From the NCBI GenBank assembly GCA_964016885.1, contig OZ024740.1, positions 413,106,001-413,170,000 of the forward strand: a DNA stretch of 64,000 bases, given 5' to 3'. Positions 10,548 through 62,998 of the stretch are shown here, piece by piece (within the stretch, counting starts at the first letter, position 1; each line of letters starts with the position of its first letter). The notes under the pieces were generated by a model that saw only the letters and a list, made by a program, of their open reading frames with translations, ran no database searches and was not told the DNA's origin. The position numbers and the translations under genes are program-made. The DNA comes from Eledone cirrhosa (Eukaryota).

Positions 10548-11901
10548 TCAGGTTATAAATTGGGTGTTGAGCTCTAGTCTATTATTGATTGGTTGATGTG
10601 TTCTATCTATAATGAGTGCTTCCTTGATTCTAAGATTGCCGAGGTTTCTTTCCTTAGTTTCTATCCTAACTGTTATGTTTTTATCAGTGTTTTTGCATTT
10701 AACTAGGTGTTTCTTAAATGAGGAAGCGTTAGTATTGAGGTGTTCTTTTATTCTTATGTGGAGTGGTCTGGTGGTACTACCTACGTAGAAGTTGTTGCAT
10801 TTGTCACACTCTAGTCTGTAAACTACGTAAGCCTGGTGGCATAGGTCTGTGTCGTTGATGGGGCAGTTGGCTAGTCTGCAGCAGTTGTCATGTCTGGTGG
10901 AGTGTCTCTTAGCTAGCCGTCCACGCAAAGAAGGACCCGAATGGGCCAGTTGAATATCCAGACATTCTCGTCTGATGGCTCTGCGGATGGCTGTTGTTGT
11001 TTCTTCACTGAAGTGTGGGAGCTTCAGGAAGCAAGTGTTAGTGCCTCGGGTGTGGTGTCCTCTGTTCTTTCTGGCACGGTTTGTGGTGGATGTCGTGTAT
11101 CCGTTCAGTTTGAGTACTTCCAGGAAATGTGTGGTGTGTGTGTCTCGGTCTCTGGCGTCGGTGCATTTGTTCTTGATACGTGCCAGTTCGTTCTTTATGT
11201 ATCCGAACTTGGCACCGAGTGGGAGGGCCGATCTGAAATGTACGAACAGGTCCCTGCTGGCGGATTTTTTATAGAAGCAGGTGTGGATGTTGCCTTCCTC
11301 TGTTACCCTGAGTTGGAAGTCCAGCAGGGATAGGGATCCGCGGTCATCGGGGTGTTCTATGCTGAACTTTATACTGGCGTCCATGCTGGAGAATGTTGTG
11401 TATATTTTCTCTGCCTCCTCACGGGATGATGTAAGGATGAGTATGTCATCTACATATCGGGTGAAGAAAGCATGGGAATGGCAGGTGTTGAGGGCTCGGC
11501 ATTCTAGCTGGTTCATGTAAGTGATGGCCAGCAGGCCAGAGAGGCTGGATCCCATGGGTAATCCTGTTGTCTGTCTGTATGTGTGGTGGTGGAAGGTGAA
11601 GTACGTGTTGTCTACTGTGAAGGACAAAAGTTGGTGTATGTCCGTCGGGTGGAGGCCGTAGCAGTGGATGTTCTCTGCGACCACGCAGTCCGTCAATAAA
11701 TCGACAGCTGGGTGAGCGGCGATTGTAGTGTAGAGGGAGACAACGTCGAGGCTAAAAGCGTATTTATTAAGTTTAAGTTGTTCTGGCTGGAGTTGGTGTA
11801 ATCTACGTATAACTTCGTCGGAGCTACTGACATGTCCGGGGAAGGTGGAGAGTAGAGGCTTGAGGACCTGGGAGAGAAGCCAGGAAATTTTGTATATTGC
11901 A
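10548..11901 (-). CDS. PLE reverse transcriptase + GIY-YIG endonuclease (5'-truncated, uninterrupted)
   Basis: Motifs SLDVVSLYT, GLPMGSSLS, RYVDDI, LLDF, a Cys-rich linker, and VVYRLECDKCNNFYVGST..R..EH. The predicted start lies in the inverted segment and is artefactual. Confidence 0.93.
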
Positions 11902-12100
11902 CTTTCTCCCACACACATATACAGGCACGCATATAAAATTTAAAAAAACACAACAAAAACATAAACAAACCTCTCTTAAAGGGAGACTACTCTTTACCCA
12001 CCTAATTTTAATTCTTTGATATTAAAGTTAGAACTCTATACTATTTCCGGTCAGCATGGCTTCATTGGAAATTTAGACGCTGGTCTGAGACTTTTACTTC

Positions 12101-20764: not shown

Positions 20765-20834
<70 letters not shown>

Positions 20835-21028
20835 GATAAATCTACCAAGAGTTTACGGTAGTGTCCAATCCGTATGAAGAACTCAATGTATTCCGGATAT
20901 CATGGAAAGAAGAGATGTAATGAAAAATCACTTTCGGTGAAAGATAAACGGTATACAGAGTCAAGATAAAATATTACACAAATAATGAATAAAACAATGA
21001 AGCAGTTCCTTATATTAAACAAAAAAAG

Positions 21029-21182
21029 TTCATTATTTAACGATCGTTTCTAGGATATATATGTGTTAGAATTGGCATGCATATTCAACAGATCTATGTA
21101 CAAAATTATTCAAAATTATACAAACTATCAAGATTAAATATACATACCAACACATATATACGCCGTCTTCAGAAATAATGAA
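21029..21182 (-). ncRNA. Type I hammerhead ribozyme with extended stem II (left arm)
   Basis: Reverse-complement copy of 27078-27231. Confidence 0.75.
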
Positions 21183-21809
21183 ATATATTTATTGATAATA
21201 ACAACAATTCAAAATTTCAGGTCCGTTTGGGAACAAAATTGACCAATGAAAATACAAAAGGTTTAATGCAGTTCGGTGTGTGTATATACATGTAACTACC
21301 CTTACACATATTTTACAAAAATGTATGCTCAACTTGTATACGCATACCAAAAGGATGGATGCAAATACAAAATGTCAAGGTTAATGTCTCTGTAAGTTTA
21401 TAATGCACAGATAAGATGCGTATAGACACATAAATATGAAATAAGTGTATACACATAATCTCATACTCACACATATCCGTACAATCACACACACACGCGC
21501 GTATATGCATAAACATACACATAACTACGAACATACAAACACACACACACCCCCACTCACATATATATATGTGGATATAAAATCCTAAGCACATGGATAT
21601 TAATTCACTCACATAAACACTGGCACACACATTTAGATCAAGATACAGAAATTAGGTGGGAGGGGGGGAGAGGTCAGTATTCAACGGTTTGGGCAGACTG
21701 CTTAATATAGATGTATCTATAAACTAAGAAAATAAAAAATTATAAATAATAAATAAACATTAAAAAGGAAAGAAAAGAAAAAGAAAAAAGAAAAAAGAAA
21801 TATATCAAG

Positions 21810-21867
<58 letters not shown>

Positions 21868-21868
21868 C

Positions 21869-21899
<31 letters not shown>

Positions 21900-22009
21900 C
21901 AAACACATACATACATATACACACATCCACACTTAGAACATACATACACACACAAATATAAACATATACATATACACACATACATACATATACACACATA
22001 CATATAAAT

Positions 22010-22078
<69 letters not shown>

Positions 22079-22355
22079 TACACATATAATCACACATACT
22101 ATATAGACACACATATATATACACACATACACGCACATATACATACACTTACATACTTATATACATACAGATATACACATACATACCTATATATACACAC
22201 AAATACATACAGACATACATACATACATACAGACAAATACTTACGCATCCATATATCGGTATATACATACAAACACCACTACACTCTCACACAACTCAGA
22301 CATACAAAGAAAAAGGTATATACCTATACACATATACATATACAAATAGAGAAAC

Positions 22356-22424
<69 letters not shown>

Positions 22425-22618
22425 CACATATACACACATACACATACATACACATACATACATGTACACACACATAGATATATATACATACACACATACA
22501 CACATACATATATAGTCATACACACACATACACCTACACGAACATACACATACACATATATAAAGATATATATACACACACACACACACATACACACACA
22601 CACATATATATAAAATAA

Positions 22619-22665
<47 letters not shown>

Positions 22666-23234
22666 CATATACATACACACATACATAGACATATATGTAC
22701 ATACATACACATACATACATACATACACACACATACATACATATATATATACACACATAGACATATACATACATACACACACAACATACATACACACATA
22801 TATACTCATACATAGAATTAGATATATATTCATACATACATACGCACTTACATATACTCATATATACAAATACATACGCATCCATATATGCGTATATACA
22901 TAGAAACACCACTACACCCTCACCCAACTCAGACATACAAAGAATAAGGCATATACATATACATATATACACGCATTAATAGAGATATATATACACATAT
23001 ATATATATATATATATATACACATACACTTATATATATATACCCACACACACATACAACCATAAATACACATACAAACACCCACATATACATATATATAC
23101 ACACATATATATATACACACACATAAAAAACAGACATGCACATATATATTTTTTTACACATATATATACACATATATATACATATACTCACCCTCACATA
23201 TACACACATACACATAAGTTATATTATAATAATA

Positions 23235-23281
<47 letters not shown>

Positions 23282-23528
23282 CGAATATAGACATATATAC
23301 ACACATAGATATATATATATATATACACATACATATACACACACACATACACACGCTCACATATATATGTGTGTGCACACACACATATATACACATACAC
23401 ACATATACACATAAACACATATATGTGTATACATGCACACACACACATATATCCACATAGATACGAAGATAGACATATAAATAGAGAGACATACATATAT
23501 ATACACACACATATATACATACATACAT

Positions 23529-23589
<61 letters not shown>

Positions 23590-24658
23590 CACACATACAC
23601 ATACACATATATATACACATGCATATATACACATATATATATACATACCCACATATATATACACACACAATCTTACATTCTTATTTGCATGCGCATATAT
23701 GTATTTTTATATTCAGATATAAATACCCAAACATATATACACCTACCTACATATATATTCATACATACACGCTTACAAACACAGATGATAATAGTATGGG
23801 GGAAAGGGGGGGGTTGGAGAAGGGGATTATAGTAAATATATGTTTCAAGAAACATATATGTATGTATATGTATATGTATATGTATATGTGTATGTATATG
23901 TATATGTATATGTATTAATTTTGATTTCTATTTGCATATAATTATATTCTGCTATTGATAAAATACAATATCTGTTTTATTTATTATATACCTAATTAAC
24001 ATATACTATAGAAATAAATATATAATTTTTAATTTAGTTAACCTATAATTTATATTCTACTACCGATGTAATACTTTATTTGTTTTTTTCCCTATTACTA
24101 AATTCATTTCCTAATATTGATACCATAACGTTATTAACTTTAATTTAGTTATACTATAATTAATACTCTACTACTATTTAACTTCAAAATTCTGCTTCAA
24201 ATATTATAAACCTAACTAATTTACACCTTAGAAATCAATATGTTAACTATCTTTAGTTTAGTTAACATATAATTAATGGTATACTTATTTATTTTGAAAT
24301 GCATAAATTTTGCCTTATTTCTTATTTATTGTATTTCCAAACACTGAAACTATGTAAAAACATACATTGGATCCAGATACGGATAATATTCTATGTTTCT
24401 TGAAACATATATTTACTATAATCCCCTTCTCCAACCCCCCCCTTTCCCCCATACTATTATCATCTGTGTTTGTAAGCGTGTATGTATGAATATATATGTA
24501 GGTAGGTGTATATATGTTTGGGTATTTATATCTGAATATAAAAATACATATATGCGCATGCAAATAAGAATGTAAGATTGTGTGTGTATATATATGTGGG
24601 TATGTATATATATATGTGTATATATGCATGTGTATATATATGTGTATGTGTATGTGTG

Positions 24659-24713
<55 letters not shown>

Positions 24714-24960
24714 ATGTATGTATGTATATATGTGTGTGTATATATATGTATGTCTCTCTATTTATATGTCTATCTTCGTATCTATGTGGATATATGTGTG
24801 TGTGTGCATGTATACACATATATGTGTTTATGTGTATATGTGTGTATGTGTATATATGTGTGTGTGCACACACATATATATGTGAGCGTGTGTATGTGTG
24901 TGTGTATATGTATGTGTATATATATATATATATCTATGTGTGTATATATGTCTATATTCG

Positions 24961-25019
<59 letters not shown>

Positions 25020-25590
25020 TATTATTATAATATAACTTATGTGTATGTGTGTATATGTGAGCGTGAGTATATGTATATATATGTGTATATATATGTGTAA
25101 AAAAATATATATGTGCATGTCTGTTTTTTATGTGTGTGTATATATATATATGTGTGTATATATATGTATATGTGGGTGTTTGTATGTGTATTTATGGTTG
25201 TATGTGTGTGTGGGTATATATATATAAGTGTATGTGTATATATATATATATATATATATGTGTATATATATCTCTATTAATGCGTGTATATATGTATATG
25301 TATATGCCTTATTCTTTGTATGTCTGAGTTGGGTGAGGGTGTAGTGGTGTTTCTATGTATATACGCATATATGGATGCGTATGTATTTGTATATATGAGT
25401 ATATGTAAGTGCGTATGTATGTATGAATATATATCTAATTCTATGTATGAGTATATATGTGTGTATGTATGTTGTGTGTGTATGTATGTATATGTCTATG
25501 TGTGTATATATATATGTATGTATGTGTGTGTATGTATGTATGTATGTGTATGTATGTACATATATGTCTATGTATGTGTGTATGTATATG

Positions 25591-25639
<49 letters not shown>

Positions 25640-25836
25640 TTATTTTATATATATGTGTGTGTGTGTATGTGTGTGTGTGTGTGTATATATATCTTTATAT
25701 ATGTGTATGTGTATGTTCGTGTAGGTGTATGTGTGTGTATGACTATATATGTATGTGTGTATGTGTGTATGTATATATATATCTATGTGTGTGTACATGT
25801 ATGTATGTGTATGTATGTGTATGTGTGTATATGTGT

Positions 25837-25898
<62 letters not shown>

Positions 25899-26175
25899 GT
25901 TTCTCTATTTGTATATGTATATGTGTATAGGTATATACCTTTTTCTTTGTATGTCTGAGTTGTGTGAGAGTGTAGTGGTGTTTGTATGTATATACCGATA
26001 TATGGATGCGTAAGTATTTGTCTGTATGTATGTATGTATGTCTGTATGTATTTGTGTGTATATATAGGTATGTATGTGTATATCTGTATGTATATAAGTA
26101 TGTAAGTGTATGTATATGTGCGTGTATGTGTGTATATATATGTGTGTCTATATAGTATGTGTGATTATATGTGTA

Positions 26176-26234
<59 letters not shown>

Positions 26235-26342
26235 ATTTATATGTATGTGTGTATATGTATGTATGTGTGTATATGTATATGTTTATATATGTGTGTGTAT
26301 GTATGTTCTAAGTGTGGATGTGTGTATATGTATGTATGTGTT

Positions 26343-26373
<31 letters not shown>

Positions 26374-26376
26374 ATG

Positions 26377-26450
<74 letters not shown>

Positions 26451-27077
26451 CTTGATATATTTCTTTTTTCTTTTTTCTTTTTCTTTTCTTTCCTTTTTAA
26501 TGTTTATTTATTATTTATTATTTTTTATTTTCTTAGTTTATAGATACATCTATATTAAGCAGTCTGCCCAAACCGTTGAATACTGACCTCTCCCCCCCTC
26601 CCACCTAATTTCTGTATCTTGATCTAAATGTGTGTGCCAGTGTTTATGTGAGTGAATTAATATCCATGTGCTTAGGATTTTATATCCACATATATATATG
26701 TGAGTGGGGGTGTGTGTGTGTTTGTATGTTCGTAGTTATGTGTATGTTTATGCATATACGCGCGTGTGTGTGTGATTGTACGGATATGTGTGAGTATGAG
26801 ATTATGTGTATACACTTATTTCATATTTATTTGTCTATACGCATCTTATCTGTGCATTATAAACTTACAGAGACATTAACCTTGAAATTTTGTATTTGCA
26901 TCCATCCTTTTGGTATGCGTATACAAGTTGAGCATACATTTTTGTAAAATATGTGTAAGGGTAGTTACATGTATATACACACACCGAACTGCATTAAACC
27001 TTTTGTATTTTCATTGGTCAATTTTGTTCCCAAACGGACCTGAAATTTTGAATTGTTGTTATTATCAATAAATATAT

Positions 27078-27231
27078 TTCATTATTTCTGAAGACGGCGT
27101 ATATATGTGTTGGTATGTATATTTAATCTTGATAGTTTGTATAATTTTGTATAATTTTGTACATAGATCTGTTGAATATGCATGCCAATTCTAACACATA
27201 TATATCCTAGAAACGATCGTTAAATAATGAA
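27078..27231 (+). ncRNA. Type I hammerhead ribozyme with extended stem II (right arm)
   Basis: ttcattattt-CTGAAGA-[~115-nt hairpin]-GAAA-cgatc-GTT-aaataatgaa. Perfect 10-bp stem I and palindromic stem III aacgatcgtt. Confidence 0.78.
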
Positions 27232-27285
27232 CTTTTTTTGTTTAATATAAGGAACTGTTTCATTGTTTTATTCATTATTTGTTTA

Positions 27286-27322
<37 letters not shown>

Positions 27323-27327
<5 letters not shown>

Positions 27328-28357
27328 AAAAAATGGGGAGAAGAATACTGCAGGTTGCACATGGATACCATGTAATAAAATAAGTCCCTCATCAGTGATT
27401 TGCCGACGATCATAGATATTTCATTGCATTAAAAATCATATACCTCACGTCGGTGCAATAATAATTAAATTAAGTTATTAGGACAATTAAAACGTGTAAA
27501 GCGAGTGAGACAAGATAACAACAAAGAGGAGAGCTAACCGTAGAAGGAAGGGAACAAGCTTCATAGTTATTCTGTTAGCATAAGCTAGGTGAATATATGA
27601 GCGCTTAGAAAAAAGACCTTTCGGGAACGAATCCAAATGTGAGAAAGAGAGAAAATGTTTTCGTCGCGAACGGGGTGAAGTGAGAAGAGGAGAAACAGTG
27701 AGTGAGTGAGTGGAAGTGTGAGAAAGAGTTAACTGACATGACAGAGGGGGCGAAAGAAAGTAGGAGAAACAGAGAGAACGAGGGAGCAGTAAGAGAGAGA
27801 GAGAGAGAAAAAAACAGAATCGCAGTTTAGGTAAATATATGTGAAAAAATGGGGAGAAGAATACTGCAGGTTGCACATGGATAACATGTAATAAAATAAG
27901 TCCCTCATCAGTGATTTGCCGACGATCATAGATATTTCATTGCATTAAAAATCATATACCTCACGTCGGTGCAATAATAATTAAATTAAGTTATTAGGAC
28001 AATTAAAACGCGTAAAGCGAGTGAGACAAGATAACAACAAAGAGGAGAGCTAACCGTAGAAGGAAGGGAACAAGCTTCATAGTTATTCTGTTAGCATAAG
28101 CTAGGTGAATATATGAGCGCTTAGAAAACAGACCTTTCGGGAACGAATCCAAATGTGAGAAAGAGAGAAAAGGTTTTCGTCGCGAACGGGGTGAAGTGAG
28201 AAGAGGAGAAACAGTGAGTGAGTGAGTGGAAGTGTGAGGAAGAGTTAACTGACATGACAGAGGGGGCGAAAGAAAGTAGGAGAAACAGAGAGAACGAGGG
28301 AGCAGTAAGAGAGAGAGAGAGAAAAAAACAGAATCGCAGTTTAGGTAAATATATGTG
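27323..28357 (-). mobile_element. Non-coding 516-bp-unit element, 2 head-to-tail copies (locus B)
   Basis: Offset 516 (27325 vs 27841) with near-identical units. The reverse complement aligns along its length with the locus A unit. The 3' end abuts (TA)n. Confidence 0.88.
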
Positions 28358-28404
28358 ATTATTCATGTATATATATATATGTTAATCAATTTCTAGTTAT
28401 TATA

Positions 28405-59381: not shown

Positions 59382-59547
59382 TAGCTAAATATACACGGGT
59401 GTGTATGATTGTGTATAGAAGATTATATTAATAAGAGGAATTCCAACTTTGTCTGATTTACTCGTTTTATTTACAATCCTTTAAAATATATATAATATGG
59501 TATTATAATGAAATAGTATGATAGAATATTAAATTCTAAGTGTTAAT

Positions 59548-59586
59548 TGAACAAGTACTTTCATGCTTTCGCAATCTTCAGGTTCA
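59548..59586 (-). ncRNA. Minimal type I hammerhead (PLE-3 3' pLTR)
   Basis: tgaac-CTGAAGA-t-tgc(gaaa)gca-t-GAAA-gta-CTT-gttca. 5-bp stem I and palindromic aagtactt. Confidence 0.78.
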
Positions 59587-59966
59587 TGATATGTGGTGAC
59601 AGTCGAGTTTGCAATTTACAACTGTAATGAGATGGGTAAATTTACTACCTTTTATACATTTTATACAGAGAAAAGTGGCTCCAGAATGCAAAGCCCTGTA
59701 AACTGTATTTCGACCAATCAGTGTGTAGTTTCACTGAATTACTACAGCTGATTGGTTTAAGCGTCACGGCTGGTTGAGCATGCTAACGACCAATAGTCAT
59801 ACCCAACGTATCAATTGTTTTGCTTTTTGAAATGATGAAAATAGCATTTTCTATTAATCATCACCATCAACATCACTTTTATTATTATTATTATTATTGT
59901 TGTTGTTGTTGTTGTTGTTAGTGGTCGTGGTCATAGTGGTAGTAGAAGTAATACCCCTAGGCGTTA

Positions 59967-62149
59967 TTATTGTTCATTTAGCTTGGGTTTGAATTTATCA
60001 ATAAAATTCTTTTCCTTGATTTTTCTCTTGATTTCACTTGGGCTGTGTAATTTATAGAATGGGAATATTATAAATATTCCCTGACCACATGTTGCCAGGT
60101 GGTCGCTTAGGGGTATCTGACGGACATTTGGGTCTCTGATTTGTTGACGGTGTACCCGTGCACGTTCCGATAGTGCATTTCCAGTTCTTCACAATTCGGG
60201 CATTTAATGCAGTAAATTAAATTTCTGCTTTTGCAGTTCATATTTGCATTTGGGAATATTTTTCCAGTTTTTGTTTTCATATATTGACCGGCGTGTATGG
60301 ATTGACATGTGCCGCATCGATTATCATTGCATTTAGATACAGTGAATGATTGGTCTTTGTTGTTAAGGTCAAACTTTGCTTTTGTTAGCAATTGCTTCAA
60401 ATTTGTTGGCTGACTTTTACTAAGAGTCAAAGATCGATCTGTGATTAAGCCTTTTAATTCATTACTTTGAGCAATGATCGGTAGGTTTGCTTTGGCAGTT
60501 GAATATATTCTGGTGACATGGGTTGTGTGTCATTATAAATGGTATGACCAGTTCTTGGTTTCTTCTTCCTTGGGTTGTTCTAAGTTGTTGTATAGGTATT
60601 TTTATAGCCCGCTGTATGCCATTTTCTATAAGTAGAGATGGGTATTTTTGTTTGAGCAAAAATTCTCTTAGTTCTGTTAGGCGTTTGTACCTGGTATTCG
60701 TATCTTCTACAATGGTACAAATTCTTCTGGCTAGGCAGTATGGGATGTTGCGTTTTGTATGAGGTGGATGGCACGACTTAAAATTCAGATATTGATGGGT
60801 GTCTGTGTGTTTATAATATATATCCGTGGTAATGGTGGTGTCGTTTTTGATTATCATTATATCTAGGAATGGTAATTTGGTCCTACTCATCTCTTTTGTG
60901 AATTGGAGAGATAGGTGTAGGTTATTCAGGAGGATATTGAACTCATCCAGAGTATCTAGAGATTCTGTCCAGATGATGAAACAGTCGTCAAGGTATCTCT
61001 TCCAAGATTTTTCAATGTACTTTCTAAAGTCAGTACTATATTTTTCCTCTATTTCTTGGTAGAGTTGTTGTTCTAAGTATCCCATTACAGAGTTCGCGTA
61101 AACGGGAGCAAACTTCGTTCCCATCGCTGTGCCTCTAATTTGGATGTAATTCTTTCCATTGAAGAAGAAAGTGTTGTTTTCCAGAATAAGTTTAACTGCG
61201 TCTAATATAAATGGCGCTGTGAATCTAATGGGAATCACCTCTCTATGTTTTTCCACCCAGTATTTAACCACCTTTATTCCTAAATCATGTGTAATGTTGG
61301 TGTAAAGGCTTACCACATCAAAACTGAGTAGAAGTGAATTCGTTTCCGTGGTTTTGGGAAGATGGGACAGGAAGTCGATATCATCCCGGATGAAACTGGG
61401 TTTATGAATACATAGTGGTTTCAAAATAATGTCAACAAAATTGCTTAGACGGTGCTTGGACCAGCTATAATAGGTCTAAGTTTTAAGTCTTTTGGGTGTA
61501 ATAATTTAATGTACTCACTGTTTTGTTCTCTTACTGCCAGTTGTATTTCTTTTGACTTTTGAGCTTTCGGTAGGCCATACAGGTTGCTGGGTTTCGGCTC
61601 AAAATTGGTGATGTAGTCACTTTCCTTATCAGTAAATGAGTTGTGGTATTTTGAAGCCAGGTTGTTGATCTTCTTCATGATGTTGTGGTCTATATTTGAC
61701 GGTATTTCATGATAGAATGTTGTGTCTTTCAGTTGTTCCTCAACCAAATCCTTGTAGTATTCAGTATCCATTATAACAACTGCACTCCCTTTATCTGCTT
61801 GTTTAATTATTATTGTTTTATCATTTTGTATACGTTTAAGTGCAGACATTTCTGATTTGTTAATGTTTGGCCTAACATTAGTATTATGTCTAAGAGGAAA
61901 TTTAGAGAGGATGTCAATGTATTGGTCGAGATAAATATTTCTTCCTTTTGGCGGAGTGAAATTTGATTTATTCTTTACTAGTGATTCATCACTCTCATTA
62001 TTTTTATCAGCAAAGAATTCTACAAGACGTAATTTTCGACAGAATTCGTGGGTATCCTCCTTCAGTTCTTGGTGGTTGACTGTTGGAGTCGGTGTGAATT
62101 TCAGTCCTTTTGACAGAATTTGCATTTCATCATTGTCAAGATCTCTTTT
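59967..62149 (-). pseudogene. PLE RT + GIY-YIG, 5'-truncated, frameshifted
   Basis: Motifs LSKGLKFTPTP, KQADKG, YGLPK..K, LRPII, SFDVVSLYT, GTAMGT, RYLDDC, CNDNRCGTC, NLIYCIKCPNC and KFKPKLN. Frame breaks near 61445, 60490 and 60185. Confidence 0.94.
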
Positions 62150-62706
62150 AGAGACCCAAATGTCCGTCAGATACCCCTAAGCGGCCACCTGGCAACATGT
62201 GGTCAGGGAATATTTATAATATTCCCATTCTATAAATTACACAGCCCAAGTGAAATCAAGAGAAAAATCAAAGAAAAGAATTTTATTGATAAATTCAAAC
62301 CCAAGCTAAATGAACAATAATAACGCCTAGGGGTATTACTTCTACTACCACTATGACCACGACCACTAACAACAACAACAACAACAACAACAACAATAAT
62401 AATAATAATAATAAAAGTGATGTTGATGGTGATGATTAATAGAAAATGCTATTTTCATCATTTCAAAAAGCAAAACAATTGATACGTTGGGTATGACTAT
62501 TGGTCGTTAGCATGCTCAACCAGCCGTGACGCTTAAACCAATCAGCTGTAGTAATTCAGTGAAACTACACACTGATTGGTCGAAATACAGTTTACAGGGC
62601 TTTGCATTCTGGAGCCACTTTTCTCTGTATAAAATGTATAAAAGGTAGTAAATTTACCCATCTCATTACAGTTGAAAATTGCAAACTCGACTGTCACCAC
62701 ATATCA

Positions 62707-62745
62707 TGAACCTGAAGATTGCGAAAGCATGAAAGTACTTGTCCA
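62707..62745 (+). ncRNA. Minimal hammerhead (inverted pLTR copy of PLE-3)
   Basis: Same motif with one stem I substitution (gtcca). Confidence 0.72.
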
Positions 62746-62998
62746 ATTAACACTTAGAATTTAATATTCTATCATACTATTTCATTATAATACCATATTA
62801 TATATATTTTAAAGGATTGTAAATAAAACGAGTAAATCAGACAAAGTTGGAATTCCTCTTATTAATATATATATATATATATATATATATTTCTCTGTGT
62901 GTGAGTGCGTGTGTGTGCATGTATATATACATGTATGTATGTATATATGAAGAGAGAGAGAGACGAAGAGAGAAAGCTAGAGATTGAGAGAAATACAA

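Follow-up and report, generated by a model that had tools for sequence, protein, structure and literature searches.

The locus analyzed here raises the question of why a hammerhead ribozyme should carry a stem II of 115 nt, and what a ribozyme so enlarged may do for the element that bears it. The role of the hammerheads of Penelope-like retroelements (PLEs) is described as open by Craig et al. (PMC8557442). Taken jointly, our observations are best explained, with a probability of roughly 60%, by a terminal-repeat hammerhead with a stem II that is kept throughout the family, an RNA that would start with a cap 7 nt before the ribozyme core, and self-cleavage that, if it happens at all, would happen only in the dimer. 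The link between hammerheads and PLEs and the palindromic layout of the insertions are already known, and what is new here is an edge of the genomic copies at position -7 relative to the core, with a position-specific extra G.

A hammerhead with an enlarged stem II in a head-to-head insertion

The window, the whole 64,000-nt stretch of Eledone cirrhosa DNA that was analyzed, contains two copies of the hammerhead, both near the outer ends of a single 6.5-kb head-to-head insertion in (TA)n (Table 1). The arms of this insertion form a 2.9-kb inverted repeat with 97.7% identity; the right arm ends about 60 to 70 nt past the predicted cut site, and the left arm is longer by a tail of 135 nt. Such a layout, with an inverted truncated copy, is known for PLEs (PMC8557442, PMC3846280). 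In a host transcript through the palindrome, the two arms would likely pair together and thereby mask both motifs.

Table 1. Features of the insertion and its hammerheads, in positions of the window
Feature	Position	Strand	Remark
Type I hammerhead ribozyme motif, right arm of insertion	27078-27231	+	Sequence reading
Stem I, 5' strand	27078-27087	+	Perfect pairing with 27222-27231
Stem I, 3' strand	27222-27231	+	
Core CUGAAGA (core positions 3-9)	27088-27094	+	
Stem II, 115 nt	27095-27209	+	C-A mismatch at base, basal helix, second helix, apical module
Stem II apical module	27131-27169	+	GAU/AUC helix, internal loop, UGUA/UACA helix
GAAA	27210-27213	+	
Palindromic stem III	27213-27220	+	
H17 (U27221), GUU triplet	27221	+	Predicted cut after 27221
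Putative capped transcription start	27081	+	-7 from core, TCATT initiator-like context
AATAAA, possible poly(A) signal	27067-27072	+	9 nt before putative start; kept in several subfamilies
ATTGG (reverse CCAAT box), possible upstream promoter element	27013-27017	+	
Candidate retained intron, 54 nt	27113-27166	+	GTATGT ... T-rich YATAG; predicted
Right arm: 5'-truncated PLE 3' end, TA/TG-rich 3' UTR and hammerhead	23854-27293	+	Ends at reverse-transcription start site 1
Left arm: inverted 5'-truncated copy	20832-23856	-	97.7% identical to right arm
Mirror hammerhead copy	21029-21182	-	1 nt different from the 27078-27231 copy
One-sided tail, 135 nt	20832-20966	-	Ends at start site 2 beside small hairpin
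(TA)n target repeat, left flank	20767-20831		
(TA)n target repeat, right flank	27292-27322		

An earlier note, made from the letters of this stretch alone, had proposed a type I hammerhead of the PLE kind, its stem III of the dimer type and its stem II enlarged to a long imperfect hairpin, and this proposal is supported. The core motifs, the 10-bp stem I, the palindromic stem III, and the GUU triplet all lie where they had been placed, and stem II folds as described, at -40.5 kcal/mol (z -7.7 versus 40 dinucleotide shuffles), compared with only -18.4 kcal/mol for the opposite strand. For the whole hammerhead region z is -6.3, and none of 200 shuffles was equally stable. A CUGANGA and GAAA core, stems I to III, an open-ended stem I, and an NUH triplet are all present, as expected for type I. 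The canonical 10.1-11.1 closing pair, a consensus feature with known exceptions, is absent from stem II, the imperfect base of which consists, from the base upward, of C-A, G-U, G-C, and C-C, with mismatches at C27095-A27209 and C27098-C27206. Stem I would be 10 bp long in a read-through RNA but 7 bp long if the RNA began at 27081, and stem III has 2 to 3 bp in the monomer and 8 bp in the dimer.

Other features of the window were noted in passing. Directly past the end of the element, a 516-nt direct tandem duplication (98.3%, 27316-28358) starts in the (TA)n. At 59424-62869 lies another palindromic PLE insertion, in which 720-bp inverted ends (98.6%) surround a broken reverse transcriptase (RT) frame; its minus strand carries a minimal hammerhead at 59581, with a 12-nt stem II and a palindromic stem III. 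Outside the left arm, at a distance of 540 nt, there is a third hammerhead-like motif (20292, minus strand), in which stem II measures 26 nt and stem III consists of TA only. A pair of 447-bp inverted repeats encloses a fragment of an unrelated PLE ORF (10548-11939, minus strand) with Pfam matches to RT and GIY-YIG, and 688 copies of a 32-nt unit (93% matches) make up a 22-kb satellite at 35356-57382.

The parent element

A search of the 3.0-Gb genome with 18 bases of the 3' core gave 7,455 exact matches, and the control gave none. Copies were located by such sequence patterns, and a DNA similarity search of the genome, which skips common words, returned none. In several of the 20 long loci that we fetched, the same 3' end is preceded by an open frame of 830 codons, and one locus, L048, presents the full unit of 7,081 nt (7.1 kb), in the order hammerhead, 5' UTR, 813-amino-acid ORF, 3' UTR of about 4.3 kb, hammerhead, and (TA)n. 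The 3' UTR (L048:3184-7330) is mostly degenerate TA/TG repeat, with a G/U-rich sense strand, and greatly exceeds in length the 3' UTRs of the Hydra elements described.

The 813-amino-acid protein has 118 homologues and can be aligned, across the RT and YIG motifs, to a Pfam-positive PLE protein of the window; a search of the L048 ORF itself for the Pfam RT domain gave no match. Its single ORF encodes an RT followed by a C-terminal GIY-YIG endonuclease motif. By eye, we recognized DKT, a CxCx5C linker, YIG, CxxC, and CxH around E and N; at the RWK position L048 reads RWR, and several homologues read RWK. DKT, CxCx5C, CxxC, and CxH are given as marks of the Hydra clade (PMC8557442), and insertion traits of the Hydra type are likewise present, namely, the (TA)n target, partial tandems, an inverted truncated copy, and a one-sided tail. 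Judged by these motifs, the parent is a Penelope-like retroelement of Hydra-clade character. Residues ~490 to 585 of the L048 ORF form an N/T/K-rich insert past the RT thumb that is absent in most homologues; N-rich inserts are known in rotifer PLEs (PMC3846280).

Three other assignments were considered and rejected. A Naiad PLE needs an N-terminal endonuclease and has no canonical hammerhead, whereas the endonuclease motif here is C terminal. A non-LTR retrozyme needs noncoding head-to-tail arrays of short units, whereas here there is an autonomous parent and a head-to-head layout. The window's own RT ORFs were tried as the parent and gave no tblastn match to the fetched long loci. The family is young, as identity is 99 to 100% in the 150 best genomic matches to the N terminus, many of them in intact 830-codon frames and in tandems. 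No relatives of the ORF were found in metagenome contigs.

A stem II kept across the family

With the stem III of the window fixed, we searched the genome for the two cores at spacings of 4 to 120 nt. Cores 90 to 120 nt apart occur 12,888 times, against 23 in the reversed control, and this ratio shows that the paired pattern is not due to chance. Much smaller numbers were obtained at 61 to 89 nt (306 versus 16 in the control), at 31 to 60 nt (80 versus 17), and at 4 to 30 nt (112 versus 8, with one more fixed base in the pattern). For this stem III, long-stem hammerheads thus outnumber short ones by about 100 to 1 in this genome, and compact descriptors undercount PLE hammerheads. The same stem III is also found in a family with a 20-nt stem II (L058, L064, and L257 to L266), the palindromes of which are centred about 60 to 110 nt upstream of the core.

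The claim that standard searches would miss the motif stands in part. Rfam gave no hammerhead among the 150 listed of the 154 matches in the window, nor in a focused search, but it also missed a short-stem control hammerhead of the same genome, and its silence is therefore uninformative on stem length.

In 26 representatives, 96.9% of the cells of the stem are paired, compared with at most 60% in slid controls, and changes on both sides of a pair were found in 19 cells, versus 5.3 in shuffles, a number reached in none of 500 shuffles. Among 97 distinct variants, oppositions in the basal helix are G-U 93 times and A-C 8 times, which indicates that pairing is kept on the sense RNA and bears out the earlier remark that several differences are G-U compatible on the hammerhead strand. 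Stem I covaries as well. As the copies are related, these covariation counts are not independent events. On the strength of this pattern across sequences, the 115-nt stem II is an RNA structure that compensatory changes maintain throughout the family. The description of it as microsatellite-like sequence turned into structure holds for the subfamily of the window, with its TA/TG-rich basal helix, but not for a sister subfamily that forms G/C-rich pairs in the same register, and it is therefore the structure and not the repeat that is conserved. Long stems that differ in sequence are found in several distant families, and in two of these families the fold is no more stable than in shuffled sequences (z 0.1 and -0.7).

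The apical module is near invariant in sequence across subfamilies, and this suggests that something reads it. We considered the apical hairpin as a third start site of reverse transcription and rejected it, since 0 of 131 copies end there.

A candidate intron within the stem

One possibility that is compatible with our preferred reading, and that we hold only tentatively, is that what makes stem II long is a spliceosomal intron retained in loop II, spanning 27113-27166 or reaching a later acceptor before the ORF; the mRNA would then be the spliced form, and copying into DNA would be confined to unspliced RNA. Among 102 variants, 94 have GTAYGT at +32 to +34 from the putative start and, 41 to 54 nt further on, a T-rich tract and YATAG, a distant subfamily has GTAAAT, CTAAC, and CATAG, and the unspliced leader holds 10 upstream ATGs. 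However, the implied intron lengths of 42 to 54 nt are short for most animals, the donor pairs within a conserved helix and lies in TA/TG-rich sequence that is prone to chance donors, and one long-stem family lacks a conserved donor at the same place. A genome search for precisely spliced copies found 1, versus 1 in the control, and retention is normal for PLEs; contigs of four sequencing runs of unknown kind contained no GT-AG joint, which is uninformative. A precedent is the Penelope element of D. virilis, reported to retain a 75-nt intron 46 nt past its start (PMC2377424). AGACG at +28 to +32, comparable to the downstream promoter element treated in the same source, occurs in the sister subfamily, and no such element was matched in the subfamily of the window. 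Alternatives for the length of the stem are a protein-binding apex or mere tolerance. In the short-stem family, an intron upstream of the hammerhead was considered as well and set aside, as no clear splice signals were seen by eye in the output listed.

A sharp 5' edge and a putative capped start

Palindromes centred at most 30 nt from the core account for 2,315 matches in the genome, that is, about 1,150 palindromes. From 47 loci we obtained 41 distinct junctions and hence 82 arms; upstream of the core, 37 of these arms reach 0 to 6 nt, 38 exactly 7 nt, and 7 at least 8 nt. The edge is also seen in a sample that was not picked for it, where 20 of 41 copies begin there; about half of the sampled copies begin 0 to 8 nt before the core.

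At the -7 edge, a nontemplated G precedes 9 of 38 arms, versus 2 of 37 at shorter edges (p 0.047). Genome-wide, 649 matches have G at -8, versus ~740 with T (30 T in the first 100 of 2,456 matches, counted by eye), and at -7 there are 9 G versus 76 T (first 100 of 486 matches, by eye). Some palindromes have the extra G on both arms, and some of the extra Gs could derive from the partner arm or from short re-copied stretches. In L1, an extra 5' G is described as a mark of cap copying (PMC11702581). From the sharp -7 edge and the position-specific extra G, we infer that the RNA of the element quite probably starts, capped, at 27081.

It is doubtful that the edge instead represents the 3' product of cleavage and polyadenylation at AATAAA, with the GU-rich 5' arm of stem II as the downstream element, or a hard stop at a cDNA fold-back. 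The AATAAA just upstream, which is retained in several subfamilies, does offer an alternative source for a 5' end at this place, a CA dinucleotide is found at the edge, and self-priming has been proposed for PLE palindromes (PMC3846280). Moreover, full-length copies do not stop at the edge: among 30 ORF-bearing copies, 12 are truncated before it, and 0 of the 18 with an upstream hammerhead start at it, which means that a plain start-to-end template fails to explain full-length copies. Neither route, however, predicts an extra G at a specific position, and fold-back on stem I would add a templated base. Joined arms are often truncated at different places, yet one of them begins exactly at -7, and of 59 distinct upstream sequences, 50 have the conserved reverse CCAAT box between -57 and -79.

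Two further observations concern junctions at this edge. One subfamily (L196:1290-1520, also L189, L192 to L195, and L211) has a SINE-like insert at -7, with the first 18 nt of the hammerhead duplicated on its flanks, and copies with this insert have been amplified; tRNA-like box motifs were recognized in the insert by eye, and ARAGORN found no tRNA. At the junctions of L160, L175, and L185 there are 13-nt tandem re-copies of the first bases of the RNA, which look like repeated template jumps at the RNA 5' end.

Signs for and against an active ribozyme

The core is conserved among family copies. When copies were picked by the 5' half (n = 131), 122 had the exact 3' core, 5 had a point change, and 4 were interrupted. 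In 307 contexts, H17 is U 163 times, A 123 times, C 21 times, and never G; a first search had required U at this position. The closing pair of stem II is C-A in 95 of 97 variants and U-A in the other 2, in place of the G10.1-C11.1 pair reported as typical for PLE hammerheads (PMC4209133); a U-U at the base of stem II is a known tolerated mismatch (PMC3088659). Because of A27209 of the C-A pair, a competing fold can form in which the core is paired to the end of stem I; this competing fold is the consensus fold of the alignment. By energy prediction (in kcal/mol), the active monomer fold lies 3 to 5 above the best monomer fold, and the stem III duplex gives -10. The lone ribozyme is thus predicted to misfold and the monomer to be off, and, together with the C-A base of stem II, this suggests that cutting likely needs the dimer.

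A pile-up of copies at the cut site was looked for and rejected: in a sample picked by hammerhead patterns, only 2 of 233 arms begin there, with no excess over neighbouring bins. The templates would therefore be uncut or religated, and, given the C-A closing pair, cleavage may be weak or absent. The hammerhead of an anole PLE is described as cutting only with its protein, and the templates there are likewise uncut or religated (PMC11167929).

Another reading of the same data, which we consider unlikely, is that the ribozyme is catalytically dead or irrelevant and that core and long hairpin form a scaffold for reverse transcriptase binding and folding. The C-A closing pair, the invariant competing fold that buries the core, and the missing pile-up at the cut all fit this reading, and insertion of the anole PLE in vitro is reported not to need cleavage (PMC11167929). 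However, H17 varies among exactly the three permitted bases, core position 7 is variable and the remaining core held, stem I covaries, and the anole hammerhead does cut in the presence of its protein, according to the same source.

Proposed mechanism and significance

In the mechanism that we favor, that of a capped RNA whose ribozyme cuts, if at all, only as a dimer and is off as a monomer, reverse transcription would start at two sites, about 60 and about 200 nt past the cut site, and would run through the uncut ribozyme up to the cap. The 3' ends of the arms do fall at two sites, 76 of 233 at one and 94 of 233 at the other. Two cDNAs, one per target strand, would then join head to head and give the tiny palindromes, and longer copies, such as that of the window, would come from RNA that extends beyond the start, either read-through or religated RNA. 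The AATAAA could end the mRNA before the second hammerhead, in which case only short cDNA would be made from such RNAs and long copies would depend on RNA that is read-through or circular. Most likely, the long arm contains a sequence-specific module, either a protein-binding hairpin or the signals of a retained intron, that is tolerated by the core.

A more speculative extension, which we regard as a long shot, is that the hammerhead serves as a copy counter at the cap, distinguishing a one-ribozyme mRNA from a two-ribozyme read-through RNA by a nested switch of cap, ribozyme, and intron. An mRNA from -7 to the poly(A) signal before the next repeat would contain one ribozyme, stay uncut and capped, and be translated once the small stem II intron is spliced out. 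In a read-through RNA, the two ribozymes would pair via stem III, cut, and close the RNA into a unit-length circle, which would serve as the template for scar-free tandem copies. If this were true, the two classes of genomic copies would record the two templates.

Finally, the idea that the long stem arose by accident, as a fold-back or microsatellite insert of a single successful master copy, and that its pairing is unselected deserves almost no weight and is largely refuted already, for although TA/TG repeats fill the genome and the element readily makes inverted repeats, there are compensatory pairs across subfamilies, a sense-strand bias of G-U over A-C, and distant families that are also long-stemmed with different sequence.

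The broader value of a young and abundant family is that its insertions record the template, here with two starts of reverse transcription and a sharp 5' edge that bears a cap-like G, and without a stop at the cut site, a record that suggests a ribozyme placed at the extreme 5' end of the RNA.

Comparison with known systems

In the literature outside subscription journals, we found no PLE hammerhead with a comparable stem II and no cap-marked edge at stem I. The closest systems are the hammerheads of Hydra-clade PLEs described by Craig et al. (2021, PMC8557442), which share the type I fold, the short palindromic stem III, the location on the sense strand near the 3' end, and the (TA)n target. 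The base of stem II is often mismatched there too, by U-U in place of the C-A found here. The Hydra motifs listed in that work have stems of about 3 to 7 bp and loops of at most 10 nt, and the longest loop in its table is 36 nt, in a spike moss element, compared with the 115 nt of the present stem II. The Hydra elements are mostly shorter than 3 kb, whereas the unit here is 7.1 kb with a repeat-rich 3' UTR of 4.3 kb; short length (<3 kb) and a compact hammerhead, which are typical and not defining for the clade, are thus not matched.

The minimal PLE hammerheads of Cervera and De la Pena (2014, PMC4209133) share the dimer-type stem III, an extra nucleotide after position 9, opposite-strand pairs (100 to 700 bp apart there), and a low expected activity. 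Helix II of these ribozymes has 6 to 8 bp with a conserved G10.1-C11.1, whereas here it has more than 40 bp without such a pair. With the D. virilis Penelope of Schostak et al. (2008, PMC2377424), our element would share a transcription start inside the terminal repeat, and as in that element, a donor-like motif lies about 30 to 45 nt past the start and all genomic copies are unspliced. The Penelope intron ends where the hammerhead begins (PMC4209133), whereas the putative start and candidate intron of our element would lie inside the hammerhead.

The anole Poseidon element PAc, as described by Frangieh et al. (2024, PMC11167929), has in common with our family two internal start sites of reverse transcription, a one-sided tail, and an uncut template. 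Its tail is 30 to 40 nt long and lies inside the ORF, in contrast to the noncoding tail of 135 nt here, and our hammerhead is far larger than that of PAc. Metazoan non-LTR retrozymes (10.64898/2026.07.22.740005) likewise have a type I hammerhead on PLE-derived noncoding pieces, but they are described as head-to-tail arrays of short units, whereas the copies studied here are head-to-head stubs of an autonomous element.
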